IMG/VR virus record: IMGVR_UViG_2671180979_000021
Length of the DNA stretch: 15,097 nucleotides
DNA from: a virus
Taxonomy: Duplodnaviria; Heunggongvirae; Uroviricota; Caudoviricetes
Direction: 5' to 3' (one strand)
The notes beneath the pieces were generated by a model. It was not told the DNA's origin and searched no databases. It was given only the letters and a program-made list of their open reading frames with translations. Below, in pieces: positions 1-15,097 of this stretch; within the stretch, counting starts at the first letter, position 1; each line of letters opens with the position of its first letter. A program made the translations under genes and the position numbers.

Positions 1-222
1 TCACTGCGGAAGGCGTCTGTAACAACCGAACTGATAGTCTGCCAGACCCGCCATAACCAGCTGGGTCAGTATTAACTGGCAGCGTTCGCGTGAAAGGTAA
101 GTATTCTGCGCAATCTCCCCGACTGTCGCCGGTTCGGTGACGCTCAATTCATTAAACACCACTCTGGCGGTTTCGGTCATATCTTGCTGTTTTAGCATGT
201 CTTTTTCCCTTCTGGTTAACAT
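1..222 (-). CDS. Small protein, 73 aa, possibly a winged-helix DNA-binding regulator (FaeA/PapI-like pattern)
   Basis: Complete ORF in the track: ATG at 220-222, stop at 1-3, purine-rich AAGGGA upstream. The central segment TVGEIAQNTYLSRERCQLILTQLVMAGL resembles recognition-helix regions of small wHTH regulators. Family assignment is from memory and not searched. Confidence 0.4.
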   Translation of the reverse strand: MLTRREKDMLKQQDMTETARVVFNELSVTEPATVGEIAQNTYLSRERCQLILTQLVMAGLADYQFGCYRRLPQ

Positions 223-318
223 GACATACCAATAACTCTTGTCTAAAAAGCCAGCAAGATAAAAAGTCAGTATTCACGACCACCAGCGTGTTTACTGTAC
301 TGCACCAAGTTTACAGGT

Positions 319-345
319 ACAAAAAACCCGCTCAGTGGCGGGTTT
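319..345 (-). terminator. Intrinsic terminator hairpin (CCCGC / tcagtg loop / GCGGG) flanked by A6 and T3, strongest for leftward transcripts
   Basis: Sequence aaaaaaCCCGCtcagtgGCGGGttt at 321-345. Read on the minus strand the stem is followed by a six-U tract. It lies 3' of the 475-1119 gene. Confidence 0.6.
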
Positions 346-474
346 AAGTTGTGTGGCGAAGTAACCACTCTTAACACACTAATAGTATTTTTGTTATAAC
401 ACAAGTAGCTCATTCAGTATTTTTAGAATCTTGACTTTCTTAAGCACGGCGAACTCTGAATACCAAACATAAAA

Positions 475-1092
475 TCAATTATCTTCCAGGCCGGATGCTA
501 TCAACGAAAGCCTCTCAAAAAACGCTGTAGCAGCCTTGTCCAAAGTTGAATAAGTACTGTATTCTCCGTGTTCGGGACCAACCACTACCCATGGTCGTCT
601 TTTTGGGATTCGGGACTTCTCAGAAATCACTGTTCCAGATATACCAATATCAATTGTTACACCTGTTATTATTTTCTCTTCATCTCTTTCCCTGAACTCA
701 ATTGCCATAAATGCCGTTTTTTTTCGTTTCCCGTTTTTAAAAAAATCAAATAAAGCAAAGCGATGCTCATTAAAATCAACACCCCATCGTCCTTCAGGAT
801 AAAGGGCATGAAAGTTGTCATTTACGCTCTGCATCGTCTCATAAGCTTTAACTTCTAAATCTCCATAGTGCATAGATACCGCGCAGGAGTCACTGGGTAA
901 CTGTATTTTCCCAAGATTGAAAACCTTTACTGCTCCAGAACTATGGCATCTTGCCCGCAATTTATCCCCATTTATACTAATCGGAGAAATATTCCTTAAT
1001 GTTCCGGGCTGGCTCCCTCCTAAGTAAACGACTGTTAAAGATTGCTTATTTTCAATTGCATCAACTAATACATGCTCTACATTTTTATCCAT
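475..1092 (-). CDS. Hypothetical protein, about 205 aa, AT-rich gene immediately downstream of Q; function unknown
   Basis: Track ORF 475..1119 (214 aa). The in-frame ATG at 1090-1092 (MDKNVEHV...) is preceded by GGGAG with 6-nt spacing, whereas the ATG at 1119 is preceded only by CCTCC, so the shorter start is preferred. Visibly lower GC than the flanking genes. No family recognised by eye. Confidence 0.55.
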   Translation of the reverse strand: MDKNVEHVLVDAIENKQSLTVVYLGGSQPGTLRNISPISINGDKLRARCHSSGAVKVFNLGKIQLPSDSCAVSMHYGDLEVKAYETMQSVNDNFHALYPEGRWGVDFNEHRFALFDFFKNGKRKKTAFMAIEFRERDEEKIITGVTIDIGISGTVISEKSRIPKRRPWVVVGPEHGEYSTYSTLDKAATAFFERLSLIASGLEDN

Positions 1093-1167
1093 AATAATCT
1101 CCCAATGAACAGGTATCATCAGGAGGTTATAATAAAATATGATTATTTACTTTGATTGAATTTATTA

Positions 1168-1539
1168 CTATATGTAACAATCAATTTCTAAAGATACCCC
1201 CAACATTGCCAGACAACCGTCAATAAACCCTTCAGCTTTCTGCAGTCTGATAACAACCTGATTAAGTGATATCCCCAGTTTTACCCCCAACACCCGTAAT
1301 GTAACCCCATACACATAATACATTTCCAGTAATTCGTATTGATACGGTTCCTTTTTCTTAAGAACTGTCATCGCAGAGCTAATGATCAGGCCATCGTCAT
1401 CGCTACATTGCGGGCGGGATTTTACTTTCGAAGGAATTAATCCCTTAAAACCTGCAGCAACAGATGACCATTCCACATCCTCGTGATTATTTGCCACCCA
1501 TGCCCCCCAACGTTCAAGAACCATTTGAATATCACGCAT
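1168..1539 (-). CDS. Late-gene antitermination protein Q (QuuD/YbcQ-like small Q family)
   Basis: The N-terminus MRDIQMVLERWGAW...NNHEDV.WSS.AAGFKGLI matches my recollection of E. coli QuuD-type Q proteins. GGAGA lies 6 nt upstream of the ATG at 1537-1539; the track start at 1554 would place the start inside that RBS. Last gene of the leftward early operon, as expected for Q. Confidence 0.75.
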   Translation of the reverse strand: MRDIQMVLERWGAWVANNHEDVEWSSVAAGFKGLIPSKVKSRPQCSDDDGLIISSAMTVLKKKEPYQYELLEMYYVYGVTLRVLGVKLGISLNQVVIRLQKAEGFIDGCLAMLGVSLEIDCYI

Positions 1540-1556
1540 CAACTTTCTCCACAAAA

Positions 1557-2552
1557 TCAGGCCAGCACGCCTATTGCCAGCGCACGATCGATAAAACGAA
1601 ATATCAGCTCCAGCTGGGAGCCATACTTCTCTTCAAATGCCACGGTATCCGCATGCAGCTCGTCGTGATGCTTTCTGCACAAAGGCAGCACGAAGAGGTC
1701 ATGCGCTTTTGTACCCATTCCCCCCTGACCGTGGCCTATCAGGTGGTGGGGATCATCAGCAGGCTTTCCACAACATGCACACGGCTGCGTCTTAACCCAG
1801 CGCGTGTACTTTTCGTTAACCCAGCGGCGACGTTTTGGGCGTAACATAAAAGACTCCGGCGACTCCGGATCCACTTTCAGCGCCAGCACCTTTTTCGCTT
1901 TATTCTGGATGATGCTGGTGGCCGGAACCGAAGGCACAAGGTCACTCTCCCGGGTGACAGACGGCACAACAGGCTTCGGTAATCTCAGTGCCTTACGGGC
2001 TGCACTTTCCGGTAAGGCATCCGCCAGATCATTACGAACCAGCCACCAGCACAGTTCCGGCATTGTCACAACGTGACTGTCATCAAAACCGAGATCCCGA
2101 CGCACAACAGACAACACCCAGCGGGCACAGTTATCCGTTGCCATTGATTCCAGCCGTTCCGTGAACTGATCGCGCAGCTGGTTATCGCAGTGCCAGCACA
2201 GACGGATTGCGCCCGGCGCGTGTCGCATTGTTGTCATGTTCTCGCTGTGCCAGTCGGAATGAGGCCACTGGCAGCCTTTTTCACGAAGTAACCAGCTTTC
2301 AAGACATTCCACGCCACCAGCACGACGGATCACTGCCTCATTGCGGAACACGGCCCGTACGGCAGGATCATCCGCCAGCGGTTGTGATGCCGCCGGAACG
2401 GCACCACTGGCGAAAGATGAATAACGTTCCGGCTCAGGCTCCAGCAGGACACGCCCCTGCATAAACAGGGGCATCAGCTCTGAACCTGGTCTGAAAAATA
2501 CGATCCCCATACGCGGGGCAATTTCAGGGGTCAGTAGTGCTCTCACGGTCAC
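1557..2552 (-). CDS. DUF968 (YdfU-like) protein with C-terminal HNH-like Cys/His motif
   Basis: 331-aa ORF. C-terminal CACCGKPADDPHHLIGHGQGG...LCRKHHDELH is a zinc-finger/HNH-like signature. Sits directly upstream of Q, as ydfU does next to quuQ in the Qin prophage. Confidence 0.65.
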   Translation of the reverse strand: MTVRALLTPEIAPRMGIVFFRPGSELMPLFMQGRVLLEPEPERYSSFASGAVPAASQPLADDPAVRAVFRNEAVIRRAGGVECLESWLLREKGCQWPHSDWHSENMTTMRHAPGAIRLCWHCDNQLRDQFTERLESMATDNCARWVLSVVRRDLGFDDSHVVTMPELCWWLVRNDLADALPESAARKALRLPKPVVPSVTRESDLVPSVPATSIIQNKAKKVLALKVDPESPESFMLRPKRRRWVNEKYTRWVKTQPCACCGKPADDPHHLIGHGQGGMGTKAHDLFVLPLCRKHHDELHADTVAFEEKYGSQLELIFRFIDRALAIGVLA

Positions 2553-2553
2553 C

Positions 2554-3363
2554 TCAATGAACGGTATCGAGCAGCTTTAACAGCTCAGGGAATCGGGATT
2601 CGAAGAAATGCGGCTGCGTCTCGCGCGGATTTGCGGGACTGGTGATGTTCTTGCCGAACATGCAGCCTTTCGCTGTCAGCGACCAGAATTTTTTGATGTT
2701 GTTAATCGAGGTACGGCTGTATCGTTCGCGTTGTTCAACGATCCCCAGCTTCGCCATCTGGTGATATGCCTGATTAGCCGTAAGGCGGATACCATACTGT
2801 TTCAGCAGTGCACTCAGCGACAGCGTAGGGCGACTTGAGCCATCAGGCGCGTCAGCAGGAGCATCAATGGCATAGCGCGGTGCCAGATTCGGTAAGCCAA
2901 CAGCCTCCTGGAGTTTCTGACAGGCACCAAGCACTGAAGAGTTAGACAGGTTTAACTCCCTGCGCATAAAGTCCAGCAGAATCACGCCAGCCTGCATCTT
3001 GTCAGCAGCCTGCCCGGATAATTTTTCCGGTGCGCTGGTTACCATATCGAAAGTACGGATCACCTTCAGATGGAATGACGGGCTGATCCACATTGCATAG
3101 GCATACACCAGTTCTTTGCAGACATACGTCCCCGGGTTATTTCCGCCATTAATGACGCTAACTGGTTGATTTTGTTCCAGAGGCGGAATTCCACCCTCGG
3201 TGAAAAGTTGTTCAATCAATTCACAGGTTTGCTTATTGGAGAGCCAGTATTTCGGGCGGTTTTTTTGTTCTCCCCCGGCTGCCCTGTGCAGATCGTTCAG
3301 GCTGTAACGCCCATAAGCATCACGACGAACTTCAATACCATCAATAACCATCAGATTATTCAT
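2554..3363 (-). CDS. KilA-N domain protein (antirepressor-like)
   Basis: N-terminus MNNLMVIDGIEVRRDAYGRYSLNDLHRAAGG...KYWLSNKQTCELIEQL...ELVYAYAMWISPSFHLKVIRTFD is a typical KilA-N domain. Strong RBS AAGAGGAGA 8 nt upstream of the ATG. Confidence 0.7.
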   Translation of the reverse strand: MNNLMVIDGIEVRRDAYGRYSLNDLHRAAGGEQKNRPKYWLSNKQTCELIEQLFTEGGIPPLEQNQPVSVINGGNNPGTYVCKELVYAYAMWISPSFHLKVIRTFDMVTSAPEKLSGQAADKMQAGVILLDFMRRELNLSNSSVLGACQKLQEAVGLPNLAPRYAIDAPADAPDGSSRPTLSLSALLKQYGIRLTANQAYHQMAKLGIVEQRERYSRTSINNIKKFWSLTAKGCMFGKNITSPANPRETQPHFFESRFPELLKLLDTVH

Positions 3364-3382
3364 ACTTCGTTTCTCCTCTTAA

Positions 3383-3772
3383 TCAGGCGGCTGCACCCGC
3401 CGGTTTCTCATACTTACTGATAGTGATCTCGACCTTCCCTTTCGGGATAACCGGTCCCCACTCCACCAGCATTCTTTTCACCTGTCTGTCGTCTTCCCAC
3501 ACACCCGCGTGGGTCAGGGCGTCAAACAGCGCCTTGTTATAGTTGTCCAGATCGCGGATCCGGTTATCCGGAGGAAACAACACGATCTCCACTGAAGCAG
3601 GTGCCGACGTTGGTTTTGGCAGACGACGTAACTGCTCAACTATTGCTGCGCACGCCGCGCTCTGAAATTTTCGCCCCGCCGCGCTTATCAGGCTCTTACC
3701 AGCAAATGCCCCTTTGTTGGGGTGTCGCCAGTAGGTGTTCACGCTGGGCGGGAAAGGCAGGATCAGCTTCAT
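3383..3772 (-). CDS. rusA: RusA-family Holliday junction resolvase
   Basis: 129 aa. N-terminal LPFPPSVNTYWRH and the central DLDNYNKALFDALTHAGVWEDDRQV motif match RusA. Its start overlaps the upstream gene stop (ATGA coupling). Confidence 0.85.
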   Translation of the reverse strand: MKLILPFPPSVNTYWRHPNKGAFAGKSLISAAGRKFQSAACAAIVEQLRRLPKPTSAPASVEIVLFPPDNRIRDLDNYNKALFDALTHAGVWEDDRQVKRMLVEWGPVIPKGKVEITISKYEKPAGAAA

Positions 3773-4095
3773 ACTTTCAGGCCTCTCTCATGTAACCAGT
3801 GAGTTGCACGCAGCCTTGCGTTTTCCTCACCGGCAAGCAGTGAGCGGATAATCCCGACCGCCTCGCTGTCGTCGTCCTTCACCGCTGTATGAAGCGTGAT
3901 CCCCCGGGCCACACCACGCTTTATCGTGATGACGCCTTTTTTCTCCAGTGCGCGAAGATGCTCCACCGCTGCATTCACCGAACGGTATCCCAGCATGGTT
4001 GCCACCTCCTGATTGGTTGGCGGGAAGCCACGCTCTTTCTGATAAGAAATCAGCATATCCAGCACCTGCTGCTGGCATTGAGTTAACGTCGTCAT
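3769..4095 (-). CDS. LexA N-terminal DNA-binding-domain-like protein (no peptidase domain)
   Basis: 108 aa. LTQCQQQVLDMLISYQKERGFPPTNQEVATMLGYRSVNAAVEHLRALEKKGVI follows the LexA winged-helix pattern. Confidence 0.6.
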   Translation of the reverse strand: MTTLTQCQQQVLDMLISYQKERGFPPTNQEVATMLGYRSVNAAVEHLRALEKKGVITIKRGVARGITLHTAVKDDDSEAVGIIRSLLAGEENARLRATHWLHERGLKV

Positions 4096-4745
4096 GCCGC
4101 CATCTCCCTGACCAGCTTTTCCGCCTGCAGGCGAACCTGCGCCAGAAACGCCTCACCACATGCCTCAAGTTCATCGCGCCCGATGTAGCTGATTGCCGGT
4201 CCCTTCCAGGTCTTGTCGAAAACAGCAATAGCACCAGCGAAGAAAGCGCCTGTCGGCACCTGCTTCTCATCCTTCGGGATAAACCAGGCAGGCAGTTCAA
4301 AACCAATACGCCCGCGAATAAAAGCAATATGATCTGCATCTTCCGGCCACCACACTTCGCTGGTGGCAGCTTTGATCAGGAAAACATAGCGCCCGCCCTT
4401 ATCACGCATGGCACTGGCATGCTTCATGATGTAACGCATGCCGGTGATGTATTGCCCCTCATGCTGACTGGCGCGGCTGTATGGGGGATTTCCAAAGGCA
4501 GCACCTTTAAGCTCCGCAAGACGTTCTGACCAGTCATGCGCCAGCGCGTTGTCTTCCGCCGTGTAATACGCGGCGCATTTGGCGTTATCACCGTCAGTAA
4601 ACAGATCCAGAACAAACGGGCCAAACAGGGTGTTAATTCCCCAGAAAATGTTGTCCGGTGTGCGCCACTGATCGCCCACTTCCTTCAGTTCATGGGCTGG
4701 TTTGTTTCGCAGTTCCACCAGCGCCCGGCAATATTTATTACTCAT
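4092..4745 (-). CDS. Phage Dam-type DNA N6-adenine methyltransferase
   Basis: Contains the NPPY catalytic motif (FGNPPYSRAS) within a Dam-like fold pattern. Preferred start is the ATG at 4743-4745, which overlaps the upstream TAA (TAATG); the track ORF extends to 4778. Confidence 0.8.
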   Translation of the reverse strand: MSNKYCRALVELRNKPAHELKEVGDQWRTPDNIFWGINTLFGPFVLDLFTDGDNAKCAAYYTAEDNALAHDWSERLAELKGAAFGNPPYSRASQHEGQYITGMRYIMKHASAMRDKGGRYVFLIKAATSEVWWPEDADHIAFIRGRIGFELPAWFIPKDEKQVPTGAFFAGAIAVFDKTWKGPAISYIGRDELEACGEAFLAQVRLQAEKLVREMAA

Positions 4746-5239
4746 TAAGCCCCCACGTAATTCCCTGACAGATACCACTCTTCACCTGATGCAGCGCGCT
4801 TGCTGCTTTTCCGTAAGCACCGCTCACGACGTGCCAGAAAATTGTTTCGTTCTGGCTGGGAGTGGCTTTCACGGAATGCCGCCATCCACACGGTTGCAGC
4901 ACGACGAAATAAGCCCCTGGACTCCAGTTCTTCCGCCTGGCGGGCCAGGCACAAAATCACCCGCGGGTCGTTAGTGCCGACATAGAAATTGCGCACAGGT
5001 CTGGTTTCACGAACTGGTTGCCGTTCCGCCTCCGGCGATATCTTTGTCTGGCGCGGGAAATGTCTGCGTGCATCCCCTTCACAACGGTGAGCCACACGCC
5101 CACTCTGACGTAACTTGCTTGCTGACTGCAGAACGCGCTGCCGTGAGTAACCTGTAAAAGCATCCGCAATGTCTCCGGAAGTACACCCCGGATGGGCTTC
5201 AATGAATTTCTGAACGTCATTCAAAAGACTCATGCTCAC
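4745..5239 (-). CDS. Hypothetical regulator with PerC-like C-terminal region (YfdN-like, 164 aa)
   Basis: C-terminal ARQAEELESRGLFRRAATVWMAAF...RRERCL resembles the PerC/ANR-type small activator pattern. Start overlaps the replication gene stop (ATGA). Same position as yfdN between the methyltransferase and replication genes of CPS-53. Confidence 0.55.
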   Translation of the reverse strand: MSMSLLNDVQKFIEAHPGCTSGDIADAFTGYSRQRVLQSASKLRQSGRVAHRCEGDARRHFPRQTKISPEAERQPVRETRPVRNFYVGTNDPRVILCLARQAEELESRGLFRRAATVWMAAFRESHSQPERNNFLARRERCLRKSSKRAASGEEWYLSGNYVGA

Positions 5240-6177
5240 CCCCTGAATCCTGCCGGGATCTGGCTGTAGTCCACGTTGTCGTAACTGGCTTTGAAGTACG
5301 GGTCCTCGCGTTTTTCGGTGTACGTGCTGACGGACGGCGATAAGCGCAGGGAAAGCTCATCCCATTTTTCCCGCAGCTTCGACGGGCTGAGCACGTTACG
5401 GCACCAGAACGGATCGCGACTGACGCGGCTGTACATCTCGCAGATTTGTTTATGAGTATGACCATCCTGCACACACATCAGGCGAATTTCGTTTGCCCAG
5501 GCTGTCCAGTTCGGTTCTTTGGGACGAACCACCTCGCCGTCACATTCGGCAGCCTGCTCGTACAGGGCAATGATTTTTTTCCAGAGCCACTGTGCGCAGG
5601 TCAAATCATCCTGCGTCCCCCACTGGCGCTTTTTAGGGCTGAATACAACCGCATCAGGATGGCGAGTTAAAAAATCCTGTTCATCCGTCTGCGTGTCCGG
5701 TTGCGAAGCGTCCGGACGAGAAGGTTTTTTATCTGACGGATCATGTTTTGATTTTACTGACGGATCCCCGCCAGATTCTGACGGGTGAAAACCCGCTTTT
5801 TTACCAGATTTCGACGCATCAAATTTTGACGGGTCAGATTTTGATGCGTCAGATTTTGACGGGTCAGAATCTGACAGTTGAGAAAATGCCGCTGCCTGAA
5901 GCTTCGCAACGTTAAGCTGATAAACATTCGACGCATTGCGGTTACCCTGGCGACGCGCCTTACGCGTTAACCAGCCTTCTGCTTCCAGCCGTGCGATAGC
6001 CGTTCTGACGGTACTCATCCCCGCGCCAATCTGGCGGGCAATGGTTTCAATTGATGGCCAGCACACACCTTCGTCATTACTGAAATCAGCCAGGCGGGCC
6101 ATAATTGCCACGCTGGATAACTTCATGCCTGACGCAGCGCAACCATCCCATACATAGCCGGTTAATTTAGTGCTCAT
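5236..6177 (-). CDS. Phage replication initiation protein (O-like; N-terminal wHTH, acidic low-complexity linker, C-terminal domain)
   Basis: 313 aa. N-terminal ...SSVAIMARLADFSNDEGVCWPSIETIARQIGAGMSTVRTAIARLEAEGWL is an HTH replication-initiator pattern. The DNA iterons map onto the SDPSKSDASKSDPSKFDASKSG linker. Confidence 0.75.
   Translation of the reverse strand: MSTKLTGYVWDGCAASGMKLSSVAIMARLADFSNDEGVCWPSIETIARQIGAGMSTVRTAIARLEAEGWLTRKARRQGNRNASNVYQLNVAKLQAAAFSQLSDSDPSKSDASKSDPSKFDASKSGKKAGFHPSESGGDPSVKSKHDPSDKKPSRPDASQPDTQTDEQDFLTRHPDAVVFSPKKRQWGTQDDLTCAQWLWKKIIALYEQAAECDGEVVRPKEPNWTAWANEIRLMCVQDGHTHKQICEMYSRVSRDPFWCRNVLSPSKLREKWDELSLRLSPSVSTYTEKREDPYFKASYDNVDYSQIPAGFRG
5731..5880. repeat. 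Iteron-like direct and inverted repeats (core TGACGG(A/G)T) inside the replication gene; putative ori
   Basis: CTGACGGAT at 5733 and 5757, CTGACGGGT at 5778, TTGACGGGT at 5826 and 5855, with interleaved GACGCATC (5813) and GATGCGTC (5843). Analogous to ori-lambda iterons lying inside gene O. Confidence 0.55.
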
Positions 6178-6186
6178 GACCGACCT

Positions 6187-6525
6187 CTATTTCCCTGAAT
6201 TTACGACGAAACTGTTCGAGCGGACTGAAGCATTCATGCTCATAACCTTCGCGGAGGTAGATAACCCGTTGTGTTTCCGGCTCCCAACGAATGACTCTGA
6301 CGGGCACTCCGTAGTGATCTTTGAACCAGCGGTTAACTTGTCGCAAAGGACTGTCTCCTTCTGCCGGTTGAAATCACCCACAGCCCACTCTGCAAAGCTG
6401 TGGGTTACAATTTCCCTGTCACCTGGTACATTCACTGCATAGCAATATTCCACCTTCGCTTTTCCACCCGGAACAGGAAGCGCAATCAGTTGCGAGCGAC
6501 GGTAGTGTGTTGTTAAACTGTTCAT
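6187..6525 (-). CDS. Hypothetical protein, 112 aa (uncertain)
   Basis: ATG at 6523-6525 overlaps the stop of the upstream gene, with GGAG 10 nt upstream. However codon usage is unremarkable, a perfect 9-bp inverted repeat lies inside it, and a competing plus-strand ORF exists (6170..6442). Confidence 0.35.
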
Positions 6526-7091
6526 GCGTTAGTTTCTCCACAACCAGAAGCAATCGACGCCACGACGCCCGGAGCTGCACACTCGCGGGCGTCATTACTT
6601 TCTGAAATGCAAAAAATTTTGTAGACAAGTGCTGCATGCTCCTGCAGCTTCGAAATTGAGAGATACAGCTCGTCGTTAATTGCTGTCTTCTCATGCGGTT
6701 CCACTACACCGTCTTCGATTGCTGAACGAATCTGTTTTGAATAACTGCCGATCTGTTCAATGACTTCCAGCAGACGCTGGTTAATATCGGCGTTGTCCAC
6801 ATCCTCGACGTCAGGAAGAGACACAAAGACGCCATTTGCAGACTGCGCCACAGCATCAGCAATGAAGTGAGTGCCACCAGCACGCTGTAAAACCATTGCC
6901 CATCCCAGCGGGAAAATCTGATCGCCATCTGCACGAAGGCGGTTGAATAAAGCGTTTTCTGTTACATCGAGCCAGTCAGCCGCTTCAGCGTAACCACCCG
7001 GCAACGCCGCGATAGTTTTTCTGACAGCTTTCACGTACCACTCAGGCTGTTTTTCTATTTTCCAGTGATGCTTACCCACGATTAGCCTCAT
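6522..7091 (-). CDS. YdaT/CII-like early regulatory protein, 189 aa
   Basis: Second gene after the Cro-like gene in the leftward operon, the position occupied by cII or ydaT in lambdoid and Rac-type immunity regions. No clear SD upstream. Family assignment is by position and general resemblance only. Confidence 0.5.
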
Positions 7092-7122
7092 CGTTCTGTG
7101 GTTAAAAATTGAAAGTGTTCTG

Positions 7123-7323
7123 CTAATCTTTCGGATAGATATCCGGTCTTAAGTCAGATTTCGTAATTGCACCTGACGTGCATTGCTCAAGTTTTTTAGC
7201 CAGCACAAAACTGGCTTTTTTATAGCCATTGAAAACCAGCCGTAAGTAGCCAGGTGTTGAGCCAACTTTTCCGGCCAACTCGCCCTGCTGTTCTTTGGTT
7301 AAAGAGTCCCAATACGCTTTCAT
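7123..7323 (-). CDS. Cro/YdaS-like HTH protein, 66 aa
   Basis: ATG at 7321-7323 with GGAGGT upstream. Sequence MKAYWDSLTKEQQGELAGKVGSTPGYLRLVFNG...TKSDLRPDIYP matches the YdaS/Cro-like family pattern (C-terminal DLRPDI). Divergent from the repressor gene. The track ORF extends further upstream without support. Confidence 0.75.
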   Translation of the reverse strand: MKAYWDSLTKEQQGELAGKVGSTPGYLRLVFNGYKKASFVLAKKLEQCTSGAITKSDLRPDIYPKD

Positions 7324-7325
7324 AC

Positions 7326-7398
7326 AATATGTACCTCCGGTGTACATATTACATGATTGGAATGAACCTTCAAGATACTTGTACCTTAACGGTACAAG
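7326..7398. promoter_or_regulatory. Divergent immunity control region with two 17-bp operators of form TGTAC-N7-GTACA
   Basis: O1 at 7330-7346 (TGTACctccggtGTACA, within the palindrome aATATGTAC...GTACATATt). O2 at 7380-7396 (TGTACcttaacgGTACA, within cTTGTACC...GGTACAAg). Both lie between the Cro-like and CI-like starts. A TTGTAC-N18-TTAATT arrangement could act as a pRM-like promoter for a near-leaderless repressor mRNA. Confidence 0.6.
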
Positions 7399-7413
7399 GG
7401 TTTTAATTTCGTT

Positions 7414-8088
7414 ATGAAAACAATCCATGACATCCGGCGGTCTAACGCCAGAAAACTGAGAGATGGTGTTGGCGGGAATTCTTCCTTTGCCACTATGATT
7501 GATCGCGAGCCAACCCAGACCAGCAGGTTTATGGGAGATGGTGCTACTAAAAATATCGGTGACAGCATGGCACGACACATCGAAAAATGTTTCGACCTAC
7601 CTGTCGGATGGCTCGATCAAGAACACCAGACAACGAACATCACAAAAAAACCTGATGTTTCAATCACTAATAAACAAATCACATTAGTCCCTGTCATATC
7701 ATGGGTACAGGCCGGAGCATGGAAAGAAGTTGGATATTCTGAGGTTGATTTGAGCACAGCAGAAACTTACCCCTGCCCTGTACCCTGTGGCGAAATGACT
7801 TATATCTTGCGGGTGATTGGTGATTCAATGATTGATGAGTACCGCCCTGGAGACATGATTTTTGTTGATCCCGAAGTCCCTGCCTGCCACGGTGACGACG
7901 TTATTGCATTGATGCACGATACAGGCGAAACCACCTTCAAGCGATTGATAGAAGATGGAACACAGCGTTATCTCAAAGCATTAAACCCAAACTGGCCTGA
8001 GCCTTACATTAAGATTAACGGTAATTGCTCTATAATTGGTACAGTGATTTTCTCGGGAAAACCAAGAAGATACACAATAAAGGCCTAA
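7414..8088 (+). CDS. CI-like prophage repressor (N-terminal HTH, C-terminal S24 LexA-type peptidase)
   Basis: 224 aa. C-terminal catalytic Ser (IGDSMIDEY) and Lys (TTFKRL) spaced as in S24 peptidases. Divergent from the Cro-like gene, with operators in the intergenic region. Confidence 0.85.
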   Translation: MKTIHDIRRSNARKLRDGVGGNSSFATMIDREPTQTSRFMGDGATKNIGDSMARHIEKCFDLPVGWLDQEHQTTNITKKPDVSITNKQITLVPVISWVQAGAWKEVGYSEVDLSTAETYPCPVPCGEMTYILRVIGDSMIDEYRPGDMIFVDPEVPACHGDDVIALMHDTGETTFKRLIEDGTQRYLKALNPNWPEPYIKINGNCSIIGTVIFSGKPRRYTIKA

Positions 8089-8100
8089 TCAATATTTATG

Positions 8101-8123
8101 AACCTGCTTCGGCAGGTTTTTTT
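8101..8123 (+). terminator. Rho-independent terminator downstream of the repressor gene
   Basis: AACCTGC-ttcg-GCAGGTT followed by TTTTTTT (8117-8123), 13 nt after the repressor stop codon. Confidence 0.75.
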
Positions 8124-8127
8124 ATAC

Positions 8128-8156
8128 TTGACAATGTACCCATGAGATACATAATG
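8128..8156 (+). promoter_or_regulatory. Sigma70 promoter (pL-like) with repressor operator O3 in the spacer
   Basis: TTGACA at 8128-8133, 17-bp spacer, ATAATG at 8151-8156. The spacer contains TGTACccatgagATACA (8135-8151), a one-mismatch copy of the TGTAC-N7-GTACA operator. Confidence 0.7.
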
Positions 8157-8573
8157 TATCCAAAAGAAACATGAGGCAGGCAAGATTCAAACAAAATTTG
8201 GTTGTAACACGGCGTATGGCACATGCGTCGTTAGCGGTCTGGGGACGTTAAAGGGGACAATCCACTTCTTGCTCGGGCAAACAAACCAGGTAGCCGGAAT
8301 GTGCAAGTCAATGATGATGCTGATAAGACGCCTAACCAGCGTGGCGATCCGGTTTGACGCCTGGGAAGAGACCAGGGTGCAACGATGAGGGCATTTATAG
8401 AGCCGCGACAAAGTGTGGTGCCGTAACTGGCTAAGTGCTCTCAGCGTTGTGGTAATCCGCGAAATGGCGCGGCGGTAAGTATGGCGGGGTTACTCTTTCC
8501 CCGTTGAGGACACCGGATTGTCAGGTTGACCATACGCCTGAGTGACAACCCCACCACAACAGCCACTGCTTTG

Positions 8574-8619
8574 GCGGTACCAGTTTGTACACTTGCTTCC
8601 GGCTGGTACCGCTCTTTTT
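8574..8619 (+). terminator. Leader hairpin plus T-run (candidate attenuator or terminator) overlapping a boxA-like CGCTCTTTTTA
   Basis: GCGGTACC (8574-8581) pairs with GGTACCGC (8605-8612) around a 23-nt loop, followed by tcttttt. CGCTCTTTTTA (8610-8620) resembles the boxA consensus CGCTCTT(T)A. Confidence 0.35.
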
Positions 8620-8756
8620 ACAAAACAGAGAAGAGCATCACCGGACGACGGGCTCATAACCCAATCCATCCGGGCGGCTGCCACCGCAGGTGTTCTTCTC
8701 TGTTTTGTGGAGAAACCAACCGACCTTGCAGGGTCGATATGATGAGGAGCAGCAAA

Positions 8757-9119
8757 ATGGCTAGCGAACGCAGTACTGATGTGCAGGCATTTATCGGGGA
8801 GCTGGACGGCGGCGTATTTGAAACCAAAATCGGCGCAGTTCTCAGTGAAGTCGCTTCCGGTGTGATGAACACGAAAACCAAAGGTAAGGTCTCACTCAAC
8901 CTGGAAATCGAACCATTTGATGAGAACCGTGTGAAAATCAAACACAAACTCTCATATGTTCGCCCGACTAACCGCGGGAAAATTTCCGAAGAAGACACCA
9001 CCGAAACGCCGATGTATGTCAATCGCGGTGGTCGCCTGACTATTCTGCAGGAAGACCAGGGACAATTACTGACTCTTGCCGGTGAACCTGACGGAAAACT
9101 CCGCGCAGCAGGTCATTAA
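8757..9119 (+). CDS. YfdP-like hypothetical protein, 120 aa
   Basis: ATG at 8757 with GAGGAG 7 nt upstream. 120 aa, directly upstream of a YfdQ homologue as in CPS-53. The track ORF start at 8526 is unsupported. Confidence 0.65.
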   Translation: MASERSTDVQAFIGELDGGVFETKIGAVLSEVASGVMNTKTKGKVSLNLEIEPFDENRVKIKHKLSYVRPTNRGKISEEDTTETPMYVNRGGRLTILQEDQGQLLTLAGEPDGKLRAAGH

Positions 9120-9184
9120 TATCGTTCTTAATTAACTGATTATTTATCTCATCACTGAATATCTTTATATAGTGAGGACTTATT

Positions 9185-10009
9185 ATGTCTCAGAACTTAG
9201 ACGCAACCGCAATTAATCAAATCCATGCTCTTATTTCTGCTCAGGGTGTTAATGAAATTATCAGTAATATTGGTGCCGATGCTGTGGCATTGCCTGAGAA
9301 TTTCCGCATTCATGATCTGGAAAAATTTAATTTAAATCGCTTCCGTTTCCGTGGCGCGCTTTCCACTGCCAGCATCGATGATTTTACCCGTTATTCTAAA
9401 GATCTTGCAGATGAAGGCACCCGCTGCTTTATCGATGCTGATAATATGCGTGCCGTCAGTGTGCTTAACCTGGGTACTATTGATGAACCAGGTCACGCAG
9501 ATAACACCGCCACTCTCAAACTGAAAAAGACAGCACCGTTCTCTGCTCTGTTGTCTGTTAACGGCGAGCGTAACTCCCAGAAGTCACTGGCAGAATGGAT
9601 TGAAGACTGGGCCGACTACCTTGTGGGCTTTGATGCTAATGGTGACGCCATTCAGGCAACCAAAGCGGCTGCGGCGATCCGTAAAATCACAATTGAAGCG
9701 AACCAGACCGCTGATTTTGAAGATAATGACTTCAGCGGCAAACGCTCCCTGATGGAGTCTGTCGAAGCGAAGACCAAAGACATTATGCCAGTGGCATTTG
9801 AATTTAAATGCGTTCCGTTTGAAGGTCTGAAAGAACGTCCATTTAAATTACGCCTCAGCATTATCACTGGCGATCGTCCTGTACTGGTTCTGCGCATTAT
9901 TCAGCTGGAAGCAGTGCAGGAAGAAATGGCTAACGAATTTCGTGATCTGCTTGTTGAGAAATTCAAAGACAGCAAAGTAGAAACCTTTATTGGTACTTTC
10001 ACCGCCTGA
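9185..10009 (+). CDS. yfdQ: YfdQ-family protein (DUF2303), 274 aa
   Basis: Length and sequence character match the E. coli CPS-53 YfdQ family as I recall it. RBS GAGGA upstream of the ATG. A hairpin (aaatgcccc/ggggcattt, 10022-10043) follows the stop codon. Confidence 0.75.
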
Positions 10010-10137
10010 TTTCATTACTGCAAATGCCCCTGCGGGGGCATTTATGGAAACGTAATTAACTCAATAATCGCCGGATGGTGCGGGATTCCTTTTACCCGAA
10101 TTCAGCGCGGTGCAGCGCATATAAAGTGGAGAACGAA

Positions 10138-10674
10138 ATGTCATTTATTAAAACTTTTTCCGGGAAGCATTTTTATTATGACAAGATAAATAAAGACGAC
10201 ATCGTGATTAACGATATCGCGGTTTCCCTTTCAAATATCTGTCGCTTTGCAGGACATCTTTCACACTTCTACAGTGTCGCCCAGCATGCGGTGCTTTGCC
10301 GCCAGCTGGTGCCGCAGGAATTTGCTTTTGAAGCGTTAATGCATGATGCAACAGAAGCGTATTGCCAGGACATCCCCGCACCACTGAAACGACTTCTTCC
10401 TGACTATAAACGGATGGAGGAAAAAATAGACGCCGTAATCCGTGAGAAATACGGGTTACCTCCTGTTATGAGCACGCCAGTGAAATATGCCGATCTCATC
10501 ATGCTGGCAACCGAACGCCGCGATCTCGGACTTGATGATGGCTCTTTCTGGCCTGTATTGGAAGGTATCCCGGCAACAGAGATGTTCAAAGTGATTCCAC
10601 TGGCACCGGGCCATGCCTACGGGATGTTTATGGAACGCTTCAACGAGTTATCGGAATTACGCAAATGTGCATAA
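10138..10674 (+). CDS. yfdR: HD-domain 5'-deoxynucleotidase YfdR-like, 178 aa
   Basis: HD motif (ALMHDATEAY) with the earlier His (AQHAV). ATG at 10138 preceded by GGAGA. Length equals YfdR (178 aa). The track ORF begins earlier at 10075. Confidence 0.8.
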   Translation: MSFIKTFSGKHFYYDKINKDDIVINDIAVSLSNICRFAGHLSHFYSVAQHAVLCRQLVPQEFAFEALMHDATEAYCQDIPAPLKRLLPDYKRMEEKIDAVIREKYGLPPVMSTPVKYADLIMLATERRDLGLDDGSFWPVLEGIPATEMFKVIPLAPGHAYGMFMERFNELSELRKCA

Positions 10675-11543
10675 CTCATGTAGTTAGTTTTTCTGGCGGG
10701 AGAACATCTGCATATCTTGTTCACCTGATGGAAGAACAAAGAAAGGCTGGCAATAACGTCTGCTACATCTTTATGGATACCGGTTGCGAACATCCGCTGA
10801 CATACCGCTTTATTCGGGAGGTTGTGAAGTTCTGGGGCATACCGCTAACTGTGTTGCAGGTCGATATAAATCCAGAGCTTGGGCAGCCAAATGGTTATAC
10901 GGAATGGGAACCAAAGGATATTCAGACGCGAATGCCGGTGCTAAAACCGTTTATGGACATGGTTAAAAAGTACGGTACGCCATACATCGGCGGCGCATTC
11001 TGTACTGACAGGCTAAAACTCACCCCTTTCACGAAATATTGAGATGACCATTTTGGGCGAGGGAATTACATCACATGGCTGGGTATTCGTGCAGACGAAC
11101 CCCGCAGGCTGAAACCGAAACCGGGCGTCCGGTATCTCGCCGAACTGTCAGATTTTGATAAGTCGGATGTTATCCGGTGGTGGCGTAAACAGCCGTTCGA
11201 TTTACTTATCCCTGAGCACCTCGGGAACTGTGTTTTCTGCATCAAAAAGTCAACGCAAAAGCTGGGGCTTGCATGTAAGGACGAACCTGGCCTGATGCGG
11301 GTTTTTAATGAACTGGTTACAGGCCAACACGTCAGGGACGGTCATCGCAGAACAGGTAAAGACGTTATGTACCGTGGTCATCTGAGTCTTGAAGGGATTG
11401 CCAGAATGTATGCCGACAGCGACTACTGGAATTTGTATCAGGCGATGGTGCAGGCCGGGCGATTCGATACCGGCTCGTGTTCAGAGTCATGTGAAATCTG
11501 GGGTGATCAACTGGAGTTGAAATTCGAAGAGGTAGTTACATGA
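10665..11543 (+). pseudogene. PAPS reductase-like (PP-loop) gene interrupted by a single in-frame TGA at 11040-11042
   Basis: N-terminal PP-loop motif SFSGGRTS. The same frame stays open from 10665 to 11543 apart from the one TGA (FTKY*DDHFGRGNYITWLGIRADEP...). This corresponds to the split yfdS/yfdT pair position in CPS-53. Confidence 0.55.
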
Positions 11544-12196
11544 CAAACAAAATTGACTATCAGGCACTGCGTGAGGCGGCAGTGAAAGCCGGTGAAGATA
11601 AGTGGCAGGCTAAAAAAATAAACGGTGATTTTTTCGTTATTCGTCACGGTAGTTATACAAGACAGCATGGCTACACATCGTATCAACCCATTGCGGAGAT
11701 TGATTGTAAGCCTGTCCGGGATTTTGTTGCCAGGGCTAATCCGGCTACCGTGCTGGCGCTGCTAGATGAACGGGAAAGAAACCAGCAATACATAAAACGC
11801 CGCGACCAGGAGAACGAGGAAATTGCGCTAACGGTAGGGAAACTGCGTGTTGAGCTGGAAGCCGCAGAGAAGCGCAACGCAAAATTACAAAGAGAGAATG
11901 CATACATCCGCAACCGGTACAAAGAACTGGACCTATTAATCGGGAAAAACATTCTGGTCATGCAGGCTGCGATTATCGAATGGCAATCGACTGGCGACGC
12001 TAAAAGCGGACTGGCATGGATTTATAACACACTGTTTGGCCCAGGCGAATTACCGGACGAATCTGAGAAAGATGCTCAGGCCTACTTTAATCGCAAATAT
12101 GCACCGATTGACGAAAAGCTTATGGAGCTTCACAAGTGGTTTTGGGAACAAAGTGAAGCCGAGCGCGCCGCTGGCATTCGCATCAAAGGAGAGTGA
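11540..12196 (+). CDS. Ead/Ea22-like protein
   Basis: Contains the characteristic ANPATVLALLDERE motif and a coiled-coil region. ATGA overlap with the upstream gene; RBS GAGGTAG. Confidence 0.7.
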   Translation: MTNKIDYQALREAAVKAGEDKWQAKKINGDFFVIRHGSYTRQHGYTSYQPIAEIDCKPVRDFVARANPATVLALLDERERNQQYIKRRDQENEEIALTVGKLRVELEAAEKRNAKLQRENAYIRNRYKELDLLIGKNILVMQAAIIEWQSTGDAKSGLAWIYNTLFGPGELPDESEKDAQAYFNRKYAPIDEKLMELHKWFWEQSEAERAAGIRIKGE

Positions 12197-12197
12197 G

Positions 12198-12389
12198 ATG
12201 AACGGACAAATATCAATTGTTCGACCGGGAGCATGTGACGATCGCGAAATACGAATGATTATTCGTCTGGCGAGGGGGAAAACAATAACTGCTCTCATTA
12301 CTCCAGAAAATCTCGCATTAGCATTAACAGGAAAGTCAGACCTGCCAGTAGAGCTAAAGCTGCGAAATGTTGAGATTAAGGTGAAATAG
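12198..12389 (+). CDS. Small hypothetical protein, 63 aa
   Basis: ATG at 12198 with AAGGAG 6 nt upstream, tightly packed between neighbouring genes. The track ORF 12036..12389 overlaps the upstream gene. Confidence 0.5.
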   Translation: MNGQISIVRPGACDDREIRMIIRLARGKTITALITPENLALALTGKSDLPVELKLRNVEIKVK

Positions 12390-12391
12390 CT

Positions 12392-12958
12392 ATGACCACT
12401 ATTACCAAAGAACGCCTGCTGACAATCCAGCAGTGGCGCGAAACATACGGACCTGGCAGCAACGTTGTACTGCCAGCAGAAGAAGCGGAAGAACTGGCAC
12501 GAATTGCACTGGTATCGCTGGAAGCAGAGCCTGTAAGCCAAACTTACAACTTGCCAGAATTAATCGAAGGCATGGAAGTTTCCATTGATGTAAGCACTTG
12601 TGATGTTGATTTAGGTAATCGCTATTTCGGTACCGTCACCGAGGCGTTAGAACTTGATACAGCCAAAAATGGTTACATCCTCCTAGTTCAGGACGCAGAG
12701 CCAAACTTCGATGTAAATGGCAACTCTCCGGGAACTCCGGATAGTTGGATAAGCTGTAGTGATCGAATGCCTGAAAAGGGCCAGAACGTGCTTATTTCGG
12801 TGAATTTCGATAGCTCTCAGGTTGAACCGCTAATATGCTCCGCACGCTATACCGGAAGCACCTTTCGGCGCGGAGATGCAACGATTAAGCCGGGTAATGG
12901 TATTGAGCAAGCAACTCACTGGATGCCGCTACCGGAACCGCCGCTGGAGGTGAAGTGA
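12392..12958 (+). CDS. DUF551 domain protein
   Basis: C-terminal W-x-S-C-S-D-R-M-P...ATHWMPLPEPP pattern is typical of DUF551 prophage proteins. Confidence 0.7.
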   Translation: MTTITKERLLTIQQWRETYGPGSNVVLPAEEAEELARIALVSLEAEPVSQTYNLPELIEGMEVSIDVSTCDVDLGNRYFGTVTEALELDTAKNGYILLVQDAEPNFDVNGNSPGTPDSWISCSDRMPEKGQNVLISVNFDSSQVEPLICSARYTGSTFRRGDATIKPGNGIEQATHWMPLPEPPLEVK

Positions 12959-13530
12959 TGAACAACTTAATGATCGACCTTGAGACGATGGGGAAAAATA
13001 AGGATGCACCGATCGTTTCCATTGGCGCGGTGTTCTTCACTCCAGAAATCGGAGACATCGGACAAGAATTCTATACGGTTGTTAGCCTGGAAAGTGCTAT
13101 GGAGCAAGGAGCTACACCTGACGGCGATACCATCCTGTGGTGGTTGAAACAAAGCCCTGAAGCACGAGCTGCAATCTGTATTGATGATACTTTGTCGATC
13201 AGCGATGCTCTCTCAGAACTAAATCATTTCATTAACCGGCACGCAGACAATACGAAATATTTAAAAGTCTGGGGTAACGGAGCCACCTTCGACAACGTAA
13301 TTTTACGTGGAGCTTATGAGCGAGCAGGACAAATCTGCCCGTGGGCATACTGGAATGACCACGATGTACGCACGATCGTTACGCTTGGGCGTTCCATCGG
13401 ATTCGACCCCAAAATGGACATGCCTTTCGATGGCGAACGGCACAACGCCCTGGCTGATGCCCGTCATCAGGCAAAATATGTTTCCGCTATCTGGCAGAAA
13501 TTAATTCCTGCCACCAGCACAGAATTATGA
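12958..13530 (+). CDS. DnaQ-like (DEDDh) 3'-5' exonuclease
   Basis: Exo motif I (IDLETMG) and motif III (HNALADARHQAKY). ATG at 12958 overlaps the upstream TGA, with GGAGG 7 nt upstream. Confidence 0.75.
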   Translation: MNNLMIDLETMGKNKDAPIVSIGAVFFTPEIGDIGQEFYTVVSLESAMEQGATPDGDTILWWLKQSPEARAAICIDDTLSISDALSELNHFINRHADNTKYLKVWGNGATFDNVILRGAYERAGQICPWAYWNDHDVRTIVTLGRSIGFDPKMDMPFDGERHNALADARHQAKYVSAIWQKLIPATSTEL

Positions 13531-13566
13531 TTTTCCCGGGTGCAGCCGGTTTTGATGGAGAAAATT

Positions 13567-13848
13567 ATGAACACCTTGTTTTTACTGATGGCTGAATTCA
13601 ATACCCCAAACATTGAACTCTCAGCAGTTAGCCAAAAGTACTTTGGTATGAGTCCAGCCACGGCAGAAGCAAAAGCAAACGCTTGTAAGTTGCCCGTTCC
13701 AACATATCGCATCGGCACATCACAAAAAGCAAAACGTTGCATCAATATTCAGGATCTTGCGGAATACATAGACAAAAGGCGAGAAGAAGGACGTATCGAG
13801 TGGGAACAGGTCAGAACAGTCAAACAGAAGGGCAAAGAAAATCACTAA
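13567..13848 (+). CDS. PrtN/excisionase-like small DNA-binding protein
   Basis: ATG at 13567 preceded by GGAGA. Sequence FGMSPATAEAKANACKLPVPTYRIGTSQKAKRCINIQDLAEYID resembles the pyocin activator PrtN / excisionase-like wHTH family. Last gene before the bidirectional terminator. Confidence 0.5.
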   Translation: MNTLFLLMAEFNTPNIELSAVSQKYFGMSPATAEAKANACKLPVPTYRIGTSQKAKRCINIQDLAEYIDKRREEGRIEWEQVRTVKQKGKENH

Positions 13849-13850
13849 AG

Positions 13851-13876
13851 AAAAAACCCGCCTGAAGGCGGGTTTT
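13851..13876. terminator. Bidirectional rho-independent terminator between convergent units
   Basis: AAAAAA-CCCGCC-tgaa-GGCGGG-TTTT: a perfect 6-bp GC stem with an A-run on one side and a T-run on the other, lying between the convergent 13567..13848 (+) and 13896..14069 (-) genes. Confidence 0.7.
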
Positions 13877-13895
13877 CAAAAAGCACCAGCTATGA

Positions 13896-14069
13896 TCATG
13901 CTGCTTTGAGACGACGAAGCTTACCCTGCTGCTCTTTACCAGAGACAGTAGCGTGAGTGAACGCATTAGGAGCAGCCTTCATCAGAACTTCAACAGCAGC
14001 ACCCATACCTACGAATGCTTTCATTGTGTCGAACTTAATCTGTGGCTTGGTTGCTTTTTGATCTTCCAT
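13896..14069 (-). CDS. Small hypothetical protein, 57 aa
   Basis: ATG at 14067-14069 with GGAG 6 nt upstream, stop at 13896-13898, ending just before the bidirectional terminator. Absent from the track (below its length cutoff). Translation MEDQKATKPQIKFDTMKAFVGMGAAVEVLMKAAPNAFTHATVSGKEQQGKLRRLKAA. Confidence 0.4.
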   Translation of the reverse strand: MEDQKATKPQIKFDTMKAFVGMGAAVEVLMKAAPNAFTHATVSGKEQQGKLRRLKAA

Positions 14070-14108: not shown

Positions 14109-14528
14109 TTACTCATCATCAATAGATGATACGCAATATTTATTTTTAAATTTAAGGTTCTTTGGCGTAACTTCATCAGAGATATCAAAACCGTCCAGAA
14201 TTCTATTGAATGTAGCTTCTGGCATATCATCATGAACAGAAATCTCACCCGATCGCTGCTTTCTAACCATGTTATCCACTCGCCAAATTATAGCTTCAGC
14301 GTAAACAACATAACTTGGATGCTTGATAAAGCGATGATCACCAGAATTCAAGACGCAAGACGGATCGTGGGGGACACCATCCTTGATACTAGAAATATTA
14401 ACAACTAAAACACAATAACAATCGTTAACGGGGTAATAAACAGGATCATTACAAATCACATGAAGATGATTGCATGGTCCAGTTGGGGCAAGCACAGTTC
14501 CTTTCCTGTATGGCTGATAATCCGTCAT
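14109..14528 (-). CDS. Hypothetical protein, 139 aa; candidate toxin/effector partner of the upstream Panacea-domain gene
   Basis: ORF whose start overlaps the stop of the upstream gene by 4 nt. Cys/His-rich N-terminal half (GPCNHLHVICNDPVYYPVNDCYC). AT-rich. No family recognised. Confidence 0.55.
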   Translation of the reverse strand: MTDYQPYRKGTVLAPTGPCNHLHVICNDPVYYPVNDCYCVLVVNISSIKDGVPHDPSCVLNSGDHRFIKHPSYVVYAEAIIWRVDNMVRKQRSGEISVHDDMPEATFNRILDGFDISDEVTPKNLKFKNKYCVSSIDDE

Positions 14529-15097
14529 GATAATTGCAAAGAAAATTCCTTAAGTTTCTGAGATTCTTCCATTTTGCCAATTATGCGATTAGCCTCATCC
14601 TCGCTTTTACCCTCACTGATCAGCATTTCTTTCAGGTCTATAGGCTTACGAGAATTGCCAGGATCGTGCCACTCTGGACAAACGCTTTCTAAATGCGTCA
14701 TATTTGCGAGATCAAATCGGTTCATATGCCCATACCGAGAATAGATTTCATCTAAAATCCGGATATCTGCACGACTCAATTCATCAAAGACCTCGTCTGC
14801 ATCCATTTCCCTCGGATCTGAACGCAACGATACATTATGCCCGTTCGTCTCTATCAAGTTGTACCAGTAGTCACCAATGCCTTCAGCCTTACCGCGAATC
14901 AAGTTCAGCGTATTCGACATGACTGGTCCAAATTTCATAGAGTAAAGGCTATCTTCGCCGATCATCCTGCCATGCTTCAAAATCGACTGGCGGTTAGACA
15001 GATAGAGCAGCTTCATCAATTTCAGATATGCCATGCGCCCACCTCTCTTAAGAAGTAGGTATGCAGCCATTTGAGCTACTTTTTCTTCGCAAAACAT
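14525..15097 (-). CDS. Panacea-domain (DUF4065, SocA/PanA-like) putative antitoxin; 5' end may be cut by the window edge
   Basis: N-terminal AAYLLLKRGGRMAYLKLMKLLYLSNRQSILKHGRMIGEDSLYSMKFGPVMSNTLNLI fits the Panacea pattern (KLxKLLYL ... GPV) as I recall it. The ORF reaches the last base of the window, so the true start cannot be confirmed. Confidence 0.6.
   Translation of the reverse strand: MFCEEKVAQMAAYLLLKRGGRMAYLKLMKLLYLSNRQSILKHGRMIGEDSLYSMKFGPVMSNTLNLIRGKAEGIGDYWYNLIETNGHNVSLRSDPREMDADEVFDELSRADIRILDEIYSRYGHMNRFDLANMTHLESVCPEWHDPGNSRKPIDLKEMLISEGKSEDEANRIIGKMEESQKLKEFSLQLS

Follow-up and report, generated by a model that had tools for sequence, protein, structure and literature searches.

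A Panacea antitoxin gene and its probable MazF-fold toxin partner of cluster T6 at the edge of an Escherichia coli lambdoid prophage

The Panacea domain was named, and the toxin clusters associated with Panacea antitoxins (PanA) were catalogued, by Kurata et al. 2022 PNAS (PMC8832971); the cluster closest to the locus described here is T6. Its representative is a pair from Pseudomonas moraviensis (toxin WP_083201923.1, antitoxin WP_083354365.1), in which the toxin (PanT) arrests the growth of E. coli, the cognate PanA rescues growth and co-purifies with His-tagged PanT, and PanT specifically inhibits the incorporation of 35S-Met but not that of thymidine (PMC8832971). HHpred gave T6 an EndoA/PemK/MazF-like fold although the cluster has no CDD hit (PMC8832971). 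In the part of Dataset S1 covered here, the T6 label occurs at least 87 times, the antitoxin gene precedes the toxin gene with overlaps that are mostly -1 or -4, and the T6 rows include the P. moraviensis pair together with Enterobacterales such as Pantoea septica LMG 5345 (overlap -4) and 'Yersiniaceae bacterium 2016Iso4' (overlap -1) (PMC8832971). Here we analyse two minus-strand genes, panA and panT, at the end of a 15,097-nucleotide stretch of phage DNA (IMG/VR record IMGVR_UViG_2671180979_000021; the whole stretch is called the window). We consider it likely that they form a type II toxin-antitoxin module and are accessory cargo of a lambdoid prophage that integrates at dusA, lying in it between xis/orf57 and attP.

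The layout of the window pair is that of the P. moraviensis pair, with a stand-alone Panacea antitoxin upstream, a toxin of ~130-140 residues downstream and a -1/-4 overlap between them. The 190-residue PanA matches the Pfam profile hidden Markov model (HMM) PF13274 (SocA_Panacea) over residues 27-137 with E=2.2e-19 and 70.9 bits, against a gathering score of 25.7 bits, and RefSeq names the product 'Panacea domain-containing protein' (WP_000458584.1 / WP_000458583.1). It has no additional N-terminal domain, and ~50 residues extend beyond the Panacea domain. The junction reads ...tcATGAcgg..., the TGA of panA (14527..14525) overlapping the ATG of panT (14528..14526) so that 4 nucleotides are shared. 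A scan of species-representative genomes gave 28 loci with a toxin match, and in 26 of these the toxin gene is immediately preceded by a co-oriented PanA homologue, whose end lies a few bases at most from the toxin start; in the two exceptions 54 and 235 bases lie upstream of the match, too short for panA. In the related loci, too, the two genes either overlap by -4 or -1 or stand a few bases apart. The identity of PanA and toxin to the window proteins falls in parallel, from 82-86% and 86-87%, respectively, down to ~31% for both in Alpha- and Betaproteobacteria. Across Proteobacteria, the two genes are thus found together in nearly every case and diverge in step. An earlier note on this DNA, made from its letters alone, had proposed a Panacea product, a stop codon overlapping the start of the next gene and a toxin-antitoxin type of architecture, and each of these proposals is borne out by the data above.

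RefSeq is inconsistent about where panT begins, giving a 128-residue product from a GTG at 14495 (WP_014640052.1, in RM8385) or a 139-residue product from the ATG at 14528 (WP_000133216.1, in E1620). Residues 1-11 of the longer form, upstream of the GTG, are kept across genera in homologues, and the ATG is therefore favoured; the GTG is probably not the true start, and on this comparison the start codon can be regarded as settled. The annotation of panA also varies, an upstream start giving a PanA of 232 residues in some records. Because the window ends with the panA ATG, it does not include the promoter of this gene. RM8385 has a weak sigma-70-like site (TTGACC-17-TAAACT) ~127 nucleotides upstream of panA; sigma-70-like sites upstream of panA are no more numerous than in shuffled sequence.

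By homology, the 139-residue protein belongs to toxin cluster T6. The 28 loci include two T6-listed genomes, Pantoea septica LMG 5345 and 2016-Iso4, each of which has one row in the part of Dataset S1 examined, and in both the gene adjoining panA is a homologue of the window toxin: 56% identical (tblastn E=1e-48) with an overlap of -4 in P. septica, and 55-57% identical (E=3e-49) with an overlap of -1 in 2016-Iso4. It is this adjacency to PanA in two T6-listed genomes, with overlaps that match those in Dataset S1, that supports the assignment. The nearest Pseudomonas relative that we read is in phage Sirocco. Kurata et al. added ten residues, MIFSEQKVAQ, to the P. moraviensis PanA (PMC8832971); the Sirocco PanA begins with these same residues and is 49% identical to the window PanA, whose own N-terminus, MFCEEKVAQ, resembles them. 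Its partner is a 132-residue open reading frame (ORF) with an overlap of -1, which is 48% identical to the window toxin (E=3e-39). In GenBank this 132-residue ORF (locus 1486-1884) is unannotated, an opposite-strand ORF of 44 residues (1741-1875) being annotated there, and the upstream PanA (locus 929-1486) carries the label hypothetical. The window pair is an E. coli prophage copy at a dusA att site, whereas the P. moraviensis copy is marked 'NotPhage' in the part of the dataset covered.

The toxin family is widespread. An initial search gave 62 clusters of homologues in Enterobacterales, Vibrio and Shewanella, and an exhaustive profile search gave 2715 cluster representatives at E<=1e-3 (938 at E<=1e-10), so the family is large; a toxin homologue is also present in nine phage records. 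The 139-residue protein has no significant match in Pfam, NCBIfam or PADLOC, and its only PHROGs match, phrog_19071, has no annotated function. Searches of PDB sequences with phmmer and a profile HMM gave nothing significant and no MazF. Sub-threshold matches to ICMT, DapC and hemocyanin were dismissed as chance. The 190-residue PanA and the toxin fall into a single 90%-identity cluster of 541 members; a gene call that reads through from one to the other, or fuses them, has probably produced this artefact.

The predicted structure of PanT has a MazF/Kid/CcdB-superfamily fold by structural comparison, and a C-terminal extension formed by helices 104-116 and 122-131. MazF/Kid RNases or a related toxin chain head the list of structural matches, with CcdB lower. 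This MazF-like fold for the E. coli member is in independent agreement with the HHpred result for T6 (PMC8832971), and in lacking a CDD or Pfam hit while having such a fold the window toxin also resembles the P. moraviensis toxin. The earlier note had described the protein as one that it could not place in any family and as a candidate new toxin or anti-phage effector. The first of these statements no longer holds, given the predicted fold and the homology to T6 members; of the second, the toxin part stands as likely but the novelty does not, since the T6 family has already been described and its P. moraviensis member validated. The protein is thus an E. coli prophage member of the described, experimentally anchored PanT family rather than a new kind of system, and a 'hypothetical protein' of a few percent of complete E. 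coli genomes is now placed in an experimentally validated toxin family. Any remaining novelty would lie in the chemistry of T6 toxins and in a possible defence function.

In an alignment of 86 family members with a mean column identity of 34%, the residues conserved throughout are H21, L22, S/T47, D55, C58, G63, H65, F67, S72, Y76, G113 and S117, with H21 and S/T47 present in 86/86 sequences, D55 in 85/86 and C58 and H65 in 84/86. The protein is rich in Cys and His, as the earlier note had stressed, with six of each, but family-wide conservation is confined to C58, H21 and H65. The remainder (among them C19, H23, C26, C37, C39 and C132) are lineage-specific, and a zinc finger-like reading of this composition was rejected. 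PanT is predicted to share the fold of the MazF/Kid (PemK) family, PF02452, but sequence similarity between them is not detectable; PanT differs from MazF/Kid in its conserved H21/D55/C58/H65 core and its additional C-terminal helical extension, and its partner is a Panacea protein whereas that of MazF/Kid is a MazE/PemI antitoxin of AbrB/SpoVT or ribbon-helix-helix type. The shared barrel fold would also allow a CcdB-like action, in which PanT poisons DNA gyrase or another non-RNA target. We regard this as very unlikely: the higher-ranking structural matches are all MazF/Kid RNases or a related toxin chain, CcdB has a different type of antitoxin, and the relatives of the window protein block translation, not replication, as judged from the 35S-Met and thymidine incorporation of the T6 representative (PMC8832971).

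A number of results weigh against the interpretation of the pair as a PanA-PanT module with a MazF-like toxin. The PF02452 (MazF/PemK) HMM gave no match at E<=0.1 to the window protein or to the 86 family members, hhalign of PanT with a small, three-sequence MazF/Kid/EndoA alignment gave a probability of 0.5%, and a HMMER search of PDB sequences with the family profile did not recover MazF. The catalytic residues of E. coli MazF are R29 and T52, and the comparison gave no dependable alignment of PanT with them at residue level; S/T47 might be the counterpart of T52. Neither protein matched any family of PADLOC-DB v2.0.0 at E<=1. The link to the validated toxin WP_083201923.1 itself runs through the clustering of Kurata et al. 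and through phage Sirocco as a proxy, and a panT profile search of a 5.8-billion-protein set gave no named P. moraviensis protein among the 120 matches listed. The published activity of T6 is limited to translation inhibition by the P. moraviensis representative, so that the RNase role is one we infer; 8 of 25 candidate PanTs lacked toxicity in E. coli; and, in the part of the dataset covered, another E. coli phage PanT, of cluster T1, is marked 'not Toxic' (PMC8832971). The E. coli pair is known here from its sequence and predicted fold alone.

The same observations could indicate a MazF-like fold with new chemistry, in which H21, D55, C58 and H65 form a metal site or a Cys-His-Asp type of catalytic centre and PanT acts on the translation machinery by modifying one of its components instead of cleaving it. 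The near-invariance of these four residues in so divergent a family would fit such a centre, as would the profile searches, which leave the family unconnected to PemK/MazF, and the T6 literature, which holds no published biochemical activity (PMC8832971). The conserved core has no sequence similarity to canonical MazF that the profile comparisons can detect. The four-residue set is, however, defined by conservation in an alignment, and catalytic residues are often exchanged within RNase families, as in Kid relative to MazF. The HHpred analysis of Kurata et al. moreover tied T6 to EndoA/PemK/MazF (PMC8832971), and we judge the modifying activity unlikely. A broader proposal is that the T6 family, this prophage copy included, combines the MazF fold with a different active site (the invariant H21/D55/C58/H65) and a metal-dependent or Cys/His-based chemistry undescribed for the fold, and that the Panacea partner senses superinfection and releases the toxin, making the pair an uncatalogued prophage abortive-infection system; this is speculative and rather unlikely to be right in full.

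For the type II module with a MazF-like toxin, which we favour, the following mechanism is proposed. Coupled translation at the overlap would yield PanT stoichiometrically with PanA. By analogy with the P. moraviensis pair, PanA would then bind PanT and hold it inactive in a complex. Neutralisation would be brought about by the Panacea domain and/or the ~50-residue C-terminal tail of PanA; stand-alone Panacea antitoxins are reported to neutralise directly (Ernits et al. 2023, PMC10440598). If PanA were lost or displaced, free PanT would block translation, most plausibly as a MazF-like endoribonuclease that acts via the same barrel face as MazF but with the conserved H21/D55/C58/H65 set. The prophage could gain from this either by excluding other phages in an abortive-infection manner or by being stabilised itself. 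A literature search for later work on the T6-type family or on phage defence by PanAT pairs gave nothing specific; 'PanA' matches in a 2026 Photorhabdus toxin-antitoxin paper were to the software name PanACoTA. The E. coli copy would offer a convenient native-host model, both for the biochemistry of T6 MazF-fold toxins and for the sensing of a phage cue by Panacea.

The pair might instead lack toxin-antitoxin function in E. coli, as an accessory pair without toxicity or as a remnant in decay; alternatively, PanA might be a SocA-like protease adaptor of a type VI system rather than a binding inhibitor. Several predicted PanAT pairs were non-toxic or were not rescued (PMC8832971), and SocA, in which the Panacea domain was originally characterised, is a ClpXP adaptor. 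At the level of sequence, however, both are genuine, intact genes, and both are under strong purifying selection (pN ~0.09-0.11 with a saturated pS of ~0.78-0.82, relative to the Kosakonia and Pluralibacter copies). A 1.25-kb region spanning the pair is present at >=80% coverage and 95-100% identity in 205/5426 complete E. coli genomes; it is 99-100% identical in many E. coli chromosomes, and two phage records also carry >=80% of it. As for type VI, the antitoxin of Caulobacter SocAB shares the Panacea (SocA-like) domain with the window PanA, but the latter scores 14.4 bits against the SocA equivalog NF047745 (NCBIfam), far below the cut-off of 190, and on this score is not a SocA equivalog. 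The window toxin is not SocB-like, and T6 PanA binds its toxin directly, in the manner of a type II antitoxin, having been co-purified with it (PMC8832971). We therefore hold a non-functional or type VI pair to be most improbable.

The features of the locus are collected in Table 1. The G+C content of 14109..15097 is 41.2%, compared with 48.8% in 1..13848. Downstream of panT, the hairpin at 13877..13852 separates the convergent 57-residue gene and the excisionase/PrtN-like gene at 13540..13848 (+), facing the end of the latter; its coordinates were mapped from a related locus, where it lies at 6028..6003 (window coordinate minus 7849). Transcription of the 57-residue gene probably runs on to this same terminator. 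Phage mEp460 has this gene at 97-98% identity but lacks panAT; we therefore assign the gene to the phage backbone, and its candidacy as a third component of the module was rejected. The slot adjoining it in mEp460 holds an unrelated 177-residue hypothetical gene, mEp460_023 (locus 3415-3948), and the panAT slot is therefore a variable cargo position; this suggests that the slot beside the att site of dusA-integrating lambdoid phages is a hotspot for variable cargo.

Table 1. Features of the panA-panT locus and its neighbours, in window coordinates.
Feature	Coordinates	Strand	Description or basis
panA, Panacea antitoxin	14525..15097	-	190 residues; PF13274; ATG is the final triplet of the window
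ATGA overlap, panA stop/panT start	14525..14528	-	sequence; signature of translational coupling
panT, toxin candidate	14109..14528	-	139 residues; MazF/Kid-like SH3-barrel fold (predicted), helical C-terminal extension
Alternative GTG start of panT	14493..14495	-	PGAP call in some genomes; 128-residue product WP_014640052.1
57-residue gene, co-oriented with panT	13896..14069	-	phrog_2741 (function unannotated), E=1.8e-34; 39 nucleotides downstream of panT
Intrinsic-terminator-like hairpin	13852..13877	-	G+C-rich GAAAACCCGCC-TTCA-GGCGGGTTTTT, then T-run; between convergent genes
Excisionase/PrtN-like gene	13540..13848	+	phrog_1300 'excisionase', E=8e-40; RefSeq 'pyocin activator PrtN family'

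In both RM8385 and E1620 a dusA fragment lies ~250 bp past panA and is followed by host genes (DUF2713, zur, dinF, lexA), while the other flank is a lambdoid prophage early region with ymfK/ymfT/ymfL, yfdPQR, ea22-like, DUF551, 3'-5' exonuclease and PrtN/xis genes. The permuted phage record SKA5 has an integrase just past the dusA fragment. From this dusA and integrase context it follows that panAT occupies the slot between xis/orf57 and attP-int. These data agree with the description in the earlier note of an AT-rich pair in an accessory slot at the prophage edge, beyond a terminator that follows the excisionase-like gene.

Among complete E. coli genomes, coverage of the 15-kb window at a single site stays below 80%, reaching at most 79% (at 96.7% identity), and the prophage early region of the window is a mosaic that has no intact counterpart in the complete E. 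coli genome collection. Elsewhere in the window, a 108-residue ORF at 3769-4095 (-), beside a RusA-like gene, apparently corresponds to the 'LexA family protein' gene of the related E1620 prophage (locus 5441-5767), as indicated by length and gene order. This length is unusually short for a LexA/CI-type protein, and a full-length ymfK-like LexA-family repressor of 224 residues is found at 7414-8088.
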